Virus record (IMG/VR): IMGVR_UViG_2537561713_000009
Strand: one strand, 5' to 3'
Source: a virus
Taxonomy: Duplodnaviria > Heunggongvirae > Uroviricota > Caudoviricetes
Length of the DNA: 6,364 nt
Part shown: one piece after another, positions 715 through 1,290 of the stretch
How the letters are laid out: each line of letters begins with the position of its first letter
Position numbering within the stretch: the first letter of the stretch is position 1
Made by a program: the position numbers and the translations under genes
Notes under the pieces: model-generated
What the model was told of the DNA's origin: nothing
Database searches by the model: none
Seen by the model: the letters and a program-made list of their open reading frames with translations, nothing else

Positions 715-900
715 GGGCGTAGTGGCCCATTAAAAATATTGCAAAGACCAACTATTGTTGAACTGGATTAAACCAGTAATTCTCTATTGCTCTTATTGTT
801 ACCATCGGATGATTGCCGGGGGTTATTTTAAGTTCGGGAGGAAAAGGCTCTCCATCAGCAGCCATCATTGAGTATGTGAAATCCGCCGACGCAGTCCCTT

Positions 901-1290
901 TCATGATAATTCCGAATTTTTCAAGTAATGAGAGCAGTTCCGGTAATCCTGTGTCATCTGAATAACTTTCCTCATAGAAAGAAGCGATTGCCGCAGGAGA
1001 TGACAGTTCTCGCTCTGCAATTTTTTTGTAGTTTTCCAGAATTCTTTTTTTGAATACTTTTCCTCGACATGAAAACCCATCACCGAGGCAATCCGCTTTG
1101 CAGTTTCTTCAGTATTCTGGTTGTTTGTTACCGAAACAGAGTACAATCCGGTAAACGCATCGCGCACATTACGAGCCATATTATCAATGTATTTCTTCGT
1201 TGCAGATTCTAATTCAACTTCGTTCAGACGTTGGTGAAGTGCATGTGCTGCAATTTCCTGGATTTCTTTTAGTAAATCTTTAAATTCCAT
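901..1290 (-). CDS. ydfC-position small protein of the dicB-type left operon; the frame as given may be a pseudo-extension, as the -1 frame continues to 752 (see findings)
   Basis: ATG at 1290 with GGAG 8 nt upstream, 11 bp after the ydfB-like stop. N-terminal ~80 aa look protein-like; the tail of this frame is low quality while the -1 frame stays open for 118 codons. Confidence 0.5.
   Translation of the reverse strand: MEFKDLLKEIQEIAAHALHQRLNEVELESATKKYIDNMARNVRDAFTGLYSVSVTNNQNTEETAKRIASVMGFHVEEKYSKKEFWKTTKKLQSENCHLLRQSLLSMRKVIQMTQDYRNCSHYLKNSELS

Follow-up and report, generated by a model that had tools for sequence, protein, structure and literature searches.

The gene ECs_1063 of the lambda-like Escherichia coli prophage Sp4 very probably carries an ordinary, stably inherited frameshift mutation, in which a tract of eight adenines (A8) was shortened to seven (A7), and its broken reading frame reflects neither a sequencing error nor, as far as the evidence goes, a programmed recoding site. 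Comparison with intact homologues shows both the mutation and its position, the second of two A7 runs in the gene. The gene was analysed in a stretch of 6,364 nucleotides (the window) from the viral record IMGVR_UViG_2537561713_000009, of which positions 71-6364 are 99.95% identical to Sp4 of E. coli O157:H7 Sakai.

The annotated zero-frame ORF lies on the minus strand at 901-1290, with its ATG at 1290 and its stop at 903-901, and encodes 129 amino acids listed as WP_000394511.1, "hypothetical protein", in RefSeq and as ECs_1063 in Sakai Sp4. In the -1 frame of the same strand, a stop at 1111-1109 is followed by 118 open codons (1108 down to 755) and a stop at 754-752, an opening with a probability of about 3e-4 as calculated from base composition; in this frame, no ATG, GTG or TTG precedes the ATG at 904, from which a 50-aa ORF runs. 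Both A7 runs are read from the minus strand, the first (run 1, 1045-1051) as UCA AAA AAA GAA, encoding S K K E and forming A_AAA_AAA_G, and the second (run 2, 1021-1027), the site of the lesion, as ACA AAA AAA UUG, forming A_AAA_AAA_U. Each run starts at codon position 3 and is thus in A_AAA_AAA phase in the zero frame, so that both conform to the slippery heptamer X_XXY_YYZ. The frames, stops, coordinates and A7 positions given in the original prediction were all confirmed from the sequence, and the slippery phase of run 2, which it had missed, can be added to them. Codons 1-90 of the 129-aa ORF are native and codons 91-129 form a 39-aa out-of-frame tail (LQSEN...SELS), while native codons 91-179 (IAERELSS...NPVQQ) and their stop at 752-754 are displaced into the -1 frame at 752-1020 on the minus strand.

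Intact versions of this gene exist as single ORFs of 179-186 aa that are collinear with both halves of the split gene. A protein search with the repaired window product matched an intact 179-aa protein with E=1.7e-103, and the intact relatives include P0001 (179 aa, 94% identity to the repaired product), P0002 (179 aa, 84%) and P0003 (180 aa, 80%). Furthermore, two complete genomes (L002 and L003) have an uninterrupted 186-aa gene in this place, about 80% identical to the window in nucleotide sequence. The single ORF of about 180 aa that the original prediction had proposed to look for in homologous prophage regions is therefore present, and its suggestion that a homopolymer indel split a once-intact gene of about 179 codons was borne out.

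The frame break is a one-base length difference in a mononucleotide run. DNA of the closest intact relatives (L005-L010) reads CAAAAAAAAT, containing A8, where the window reads CAAAAAAAT, containing A7 at 1021-1027; the fuller context in these relatives, ...GGAAAACT[A/G]CAAAAAAAATTGCAGAGCGAG, has A8 in flanks that are otherwise collinear with the window. Insertion of one A in the window yields a 179-aa product (...EFWKTTKKIAERELSSPAAIASFYEE...) that matches the intact relatives to the last residue, and at the restored junction ...EFWKTTKK is followed directly by IAERELSS..., as in the protein of those relatives; the junction peptide across the shift would be ...EFWKTTKKIAER... versus ...TTKKLQSENCHLLR. 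In the DNA alignment with the 186-aa genes, the single-base gap falls at run 2, where that clade reads AAACGCATC, without any run, while run 1 and its surroundings (GAAAAGTATTCAAAAAAAGAATTCTGGAAAA) show no difference and keep the frame. Every intact homologue reads through run 1 in frame, and of the 11 intact-homologue loci read, 10 have the identical run, the exception being L010, which has A6 through a synonymous TCG. Because run 1 is in frame and conserved in intact genes, it is not the lesion, and the original emphasis on this run must be moved to run 2. A8 was seen in three diverged lineages and A7 in one near-clonal allele only, which identifies A8 as the ancestral state and the window as carrying a derived deletion from A8 to A7.

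The zero-frame TGA (903-901) and the ATG (904-902) that begins the residual 50-aa ORF share bases in an ATGA at 901-904 on the minus strand. Termination and reinitiation at this overlap could yield a free 50-aa C-terminal fragment. The overlap is probably coincidental, because its Met is M130 of the native FGIIM motif, a residue that is invariant in the homologue alignment (A3).

The split gene belongs to the early region of the prophage. The minus-strand order runs from a 133-aa HTH repressor (2371-2772) through relB/relE, a DUF1391 (ydfA-like) gene and ydfB to this gene and then to the DicF small RNA (141-192, minus strand), which is full-length (Rfam RF00039, 76.9 bits, E=3e-16); in other genomes, dicB, DUF1482 and an exonuclease come next after dicF. 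DicF and the gene order show that the split gene belongs to a lambdoid early operon with the order ydfA-ydfB-X-dicF(-dicB), the dicBF type described for Qin and O157 prophages (PMC5069750). A megablast search of a phage genome collection gave a 47-nt match only. YdfC of K-12, a 72-aa protein of the Qin prophage, occupies the same operon slot between ydfB and dicF, but BLASTP gave no alignment between the two proteins at E<=100, and they are positional analogues rather than homologues; the earlier label "ydfC-like" thus holds for gene position and not for sequence.

Several other features of this region were observed. The first 70-82 nt of the window (1-82) lack a match to Sakai Sp4 and match the end of an IS66-family ISEc8 copy (L001 83-164), and an IS element seems to lie about 60-70 nt downstream of dicF in the source genome, between dicF and the place that dicB occupies elsewhere. 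A relB/relE(parE)-type toxin-antitoxin pair at 1865-2343 on the minus strand, between the prophage repressor and the ydfA-like gene, is absent from the operon versions of K-12 Qin, L002 and L003. An in-frame, intact A8 run at 4843-4850 on the plus strand (GGC AAA AAA AAC, encoding GKKN) lies within a 400-aa replication-region ORF (4192-5394), just downstream of a low-complexity stretch (QEQEQEQEKEQEQ), and is the same type of indel-prone tract as in the frameshifted gene.

The protein itself has a modular structure. Profile matches to PHROG 1363 and 2151, which are prophage proteins of unknown function, cover residues 1-92 only (E=2.4e-37 and 3.8e-29), and profile searches of Pfam, NCBIfam, PADLOC and PDB gave no match above the curated cut-off or of convincing significance; literature searches on WP_000394511 and ECs1063 likewise returned nothing. 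The first 50 or so residues (MEFKDLPxxIQEIAAHTLRQRL...NVRDAFTGLY) are common to many prophage proteins of 113-214 aa and are joined to at least five unrelated C-terminal parts in E. coli and Salmonella prophages, a pattern that marks this operon slot as a mosaic hot spot. Some of the proteins with the shared N-terminal module are labelled "Ybl81" (P0019-P0120; P0051-P0114). An AlphaFold model of intact P0001, built with an 18-sequence alignment, had a mean pLDDT of 49.7, and only its N-terminal helices (about residues 1-70) reached 70-80. Since the frameshift lies after the shared N-terminal module, the 129-aa product keeps that module and loses the specific C-terminal module, and a loss of the function of the C-terminal module is inferred.

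The A7 allele is widespread and nearly uniform. An 80-nt query repaired to A8 matched 386 of 5426 complete E. coli genomes, each with 1-2 differences from the query, and the 79-nt A7 stretch spanning both runs was found exactly in 384 of these 386 genomes. Strain E105 has one of the two non-exact copies, which differs by a SNP and not by a length change, and at most one of the complete genomes with the locus could carry A8; neither the window allele with A8 nor an exact match to an A6 query was found among the complete E. coli genomes. (In E105, an A7 carrier, ydfB, just upstream of the gene, is interrupted by an IS3-family element for which a programmed frameshift of its own is annotated; L004 1424-2637.) The A7 hosts include O157:H7, O121:H19, O103 and O111:H11 strains as well as pig and fish isolates, and the early-region module was the same in those inspected. 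Over the full length of the gene, the frameshifted copies share 99% identity or more with the window, except for a rare recombinant whose 5' module is different. Among 80 viral-contig loci from IMG/VR, the full-length matches were five window-identical A7 copies and five intact 186-aa genes, and a large protein collection contained the 129-aa form on more than 1000 contigs and only a handful of intact alleles. The A-run length that the original prediction had expected might vary among homologues thus does differ between the window and its closest intact relatives, but is fixed at A7 in nearly all of the complete genomes.

The -1 frame downstream of the shift still looks coding for no other reason than that the deletion is recent. 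Four nucleotides separate this segment from L005, the nearest A8 allele, so that the lesion is young and the intact appearance of the -1 frame carries no weight as evidence. R163M is the only window-specific change in the stranded segment and affects a residue that is invariant in nine of nine intact homologues; the same M163 occurs in the 179-aa protein P0154, and the change may therefore predate the deletion. Other substitutions at invariant positions are A15E in the N-terminal part, found on more than 1000 contigs, F126I/V in P0132 and E108V in P0158. Together with the nonsense codon of the adjacent ORF described below, these changes would point to relaxed constraint and decay in this lineage, although the events are few. 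Two SNPs downstream of the shift among A7-allele variants (L095 nt 473; P0010) are synonymous in the -1 frame, a sample far too small to weigh, and the few variants show no sign of purifying selection.

A neighbouring gene is also cut short in the same lineage. The convergent Cys-rich ORF (CPAC...CPEH; 529-714, plus strand; 61 aa, WP_001133046.1) ends at a TAA at 712-714, where L005 and L008 read TCA and extend by another 19 codons (SGRSGPLKILQRPTIVELD). This 19-codon tail is still encoded in the window after the TAA (529-774, plus strand), and a 69%-identical homologue in L003 conserves it. The TAA is a second truncating mutation in the same lineage, beside the frameshift, and two truncating lesions in neighbouring genes fit decay better than design.

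A simple history very probably accounts for these observations. The ancestral gene encoded a protein of about 179 aa as the third ORF of a dicBF-type early operon in a lambda-like prophage, combining the N-terminal helical module common to many mosaic prophage proteins with a distinct C-terminal module. One A was then lost by slippage from its A8 tract (Thr-Lys-Lys-Ile, ACA AAA AAA ATT), such that ribosomes now translate 90 native residues, continue for 39 out-of-frame residues and stop at 901-903, leaving the C-terminal 89 codons stranded in the -1 frame. The allele has since been inherited stably and, together with this prophage module, has reached many E. coli, among them Shiga-toxin producers. 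As the A7 allele is far commoner than any intact allele, the truncation must be at least tolerated and could be advantageous.

With both A7 runs in A_AAA_AAA phase, the -1 frame is expected to receive a small leak that is not under selection. In E. coli, the background of frameshifting is 0.055%; A_AA.A_AA.A without a stimulator exceeds 0.10%, and the rates of unstimulated motifs are at most about ten times the background (PMC4066793). These published values suggest a leak of roughly 0.1-1%; some full-length-like product is likely to be made, and the full-length protein would probably account for about 1% or less. Only a slip at run 2 would restore the native sequence.

This leak raises the idea of a "pseudo-pseudogene", in which low-level -1 slippage would supply a small and used amount of full-length protein beside the abundant 129-aa form, either by ribosomal slippage at the tandem A_AAA_AAA sites, with run 1 aided by an upstream GAGGA, or by insertion of an A during transcription, or both. 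We regard this idea as unlikely, albeit worth stating: if it were true, a change of dosage would explain why A7, and not A8, spread in the prophages of Shiga-toxin-producing E. coli. A related case is the G7 "savior indel" of herpes simplex thymidine kinase, where an indel in a homopolymer of 7-8 nt may likewise leave a trace of full-length protein by slippage (PMC5009743). In contrast to thymidine kinase, ECs_1063 has no known selective benefit from, or requirement for, such a trace product.

Programmed -1 ribosomal frameshifting, one of the options in the original prediction, would produce 129-aa and about 179-aa isoforms in a selected ratio, through slippage at run 2 or at run 1 with the help of GAGGA. 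The known sites of dnaX and of IS1- and IS3-family transposases combine A_AAA_AAG or A_AAA_AAA with a Shine-Dalgarno (SD)-like element and a hairpin or pseudoknot. The gene shares with them two heptamers in the correct phase and a GAGGA (1061-1065, minus strand) of which the GAGG lies 10 nt upstream of run 1, the spacing found in dnaX. A slip at run 2 would give the exact native sequence, the A7 allele is very widespread, and A_AA.A_AA.A is used by IS elements (PMC4066793). Nevertheless, the stimulatory hairpin or pseudoknot expected 3' of the A-runs did not emerge as a significant structure. Folds of 35-70 nt beginning 3, 5 or 7 nt downstream of run 2 were no more stable than shuffled sequence (z scores of -0.25 to -1.41), a 91-nt fold gave z=-0.48, and upstream of this run an SD-like element is lacking, the best anti-SD duplex (-3.3 kcal/mol) being equal to the ORF median. 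Run 1 also lacks downstream structure. The anti-SD duplex of its GAGGA (-5.9 kcal/mol) ranks within the top 13% among the ORF's 22-nt windows, and this element may be a weak stimulator of -1 slippage there; it also encodes the conserved Glu-Glu of the HVEEKY motif and is missing in L010. Slippage at run 1 would moreover cost the product its conserved EFWKxx segment, with the invariant residues E83 and F84.

Conservation likewise speaks against a programmed site. With A8, the closest relatives encode the long form without any shift, which makes the split derived and young, and the ORF is continuous in every diverged homologue, whether of 80-94% amino acid identity or of the 186-aa clade; the split arrangement is thus kept in no diverged lineage, because the homologues encode the long product in a single frame. 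The known sites differ further in that the zero-frame product here has a long tail of 39 unconserved codons, and the efficiency expected of an unstimulated heptamer is only tenths of a percent. Programmed frameshifting is consequently very improbable, and the stably inherited A8-to-A7 mutation remains the preferred reading.

Phase variation, with the C-terminal module ON in A8 and OFF in A7 or A6 cells of the same population, would be consistent with the A6, A7 and A8 forms of one allele in the protein collection. P0154 (O111:H11 CVM9534, EIL15988.1), on two contigs, has 179 aa and matches the repaired window product exactly; P0158 (O157:H7 SE18018, GHJ75517.1), on one contig, is a near-identical 179-aa form, both having the window-specific M163 and being consistent with A8; and the sequence of P0011, on one contig, fits an A6 reading of run 2. 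Furthermore, P0017 and P0018 are consistent with a one-base loss at run 1 in other alleles, so that both runs look indel-prone. However, the rare forms at run 2 come from one or two contigs each and may be either real length variants or homopolymer sequencing errors, and a tract of A7 or A8 is short for a high-frequency switch. The exact A7 stretch in 384 of 386 complete genomes, with A6 in none and A8 in at most one, argues against frequent changes of tract length, and a switch of this kind is very doubtful.

Transcriptional slippage, in which RNA polymerase would add an A to part of the mRNA at A7/T7 and thereby rescue the full-length protein, draws on the location of the lesion in a homopolymer, where one added A gives the exact native frame, and on a precedent in Citrobacter rodentium, where tssM1 is rescued by slippage at an A11 run (PMC4256274). 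The resemblance extends to Thermus dnaX (A9), since in both genes a poly-A tract interrupts the frame and one additional A in the mRNA restores the full length (PMC4256274, PMC1088944). Unlike those tracts, the run here is 7 nt long, short of the 8-11 nt or more of known productive sites (PMC1088944; PMC4256274) and of the length of about 9 nt or more associated with slippage, from which genome-wide selection against slippage-prone runs becomes evident in many bacteria (PMC1088944). The arrangement is also not conserved, and there is no evidence here that both forms are needed; rescue during transcription is accordingly given very little credence.

A sequencing or assembly error in the window, with an intact A8 gene in the true genome, has a negligible probability even though homopolymer runs are error-prone on some platforms, for many laboratories have independently assembled the same A7, in 384 complete genomes of many serotypes, and it recurs in five IMG/VR loci, which excludes the error that the original prediction had allowed for.

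The A8-to-A7 mutation finds its closest counterpart in the homopolymer "fs-genes" of GeneTack-type surveys, in which a single-base change in a poly-A tract breaks up a reading frame that close relatives have intact (PMC3711429, PMC4066793) and, as here, the frame downstream retains a coding appearance. E. coli genes avoid AAAAAAA, a recognised hot spot of indels and slippage; it is under-represented in all three frames, which has been attributed to slippage or a high indel rate (PMC4066793). Nothing essential distinguishes ECs_1063 from these genes, and RefSeq lists the window copy as an ordinary 129-aa hypothetical protein rather than as frameshifted.

The main consequence of these findings concerns annotation. 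ECs_1063 (WP_000394511.1) is filed as intact but represents a gene of about 179 codons that a frameshift has cut short, and the last 89 codons lie unannotated at 752-1020; the neighbouring 61-aa ORF is truncated as well. For work on dicBF-type operons of O157 prophages, the rare A8 alleles are the proper reference form, and the locus could serve as a natural, unstimulated A_AAA_AAA test case for background frameshifting.
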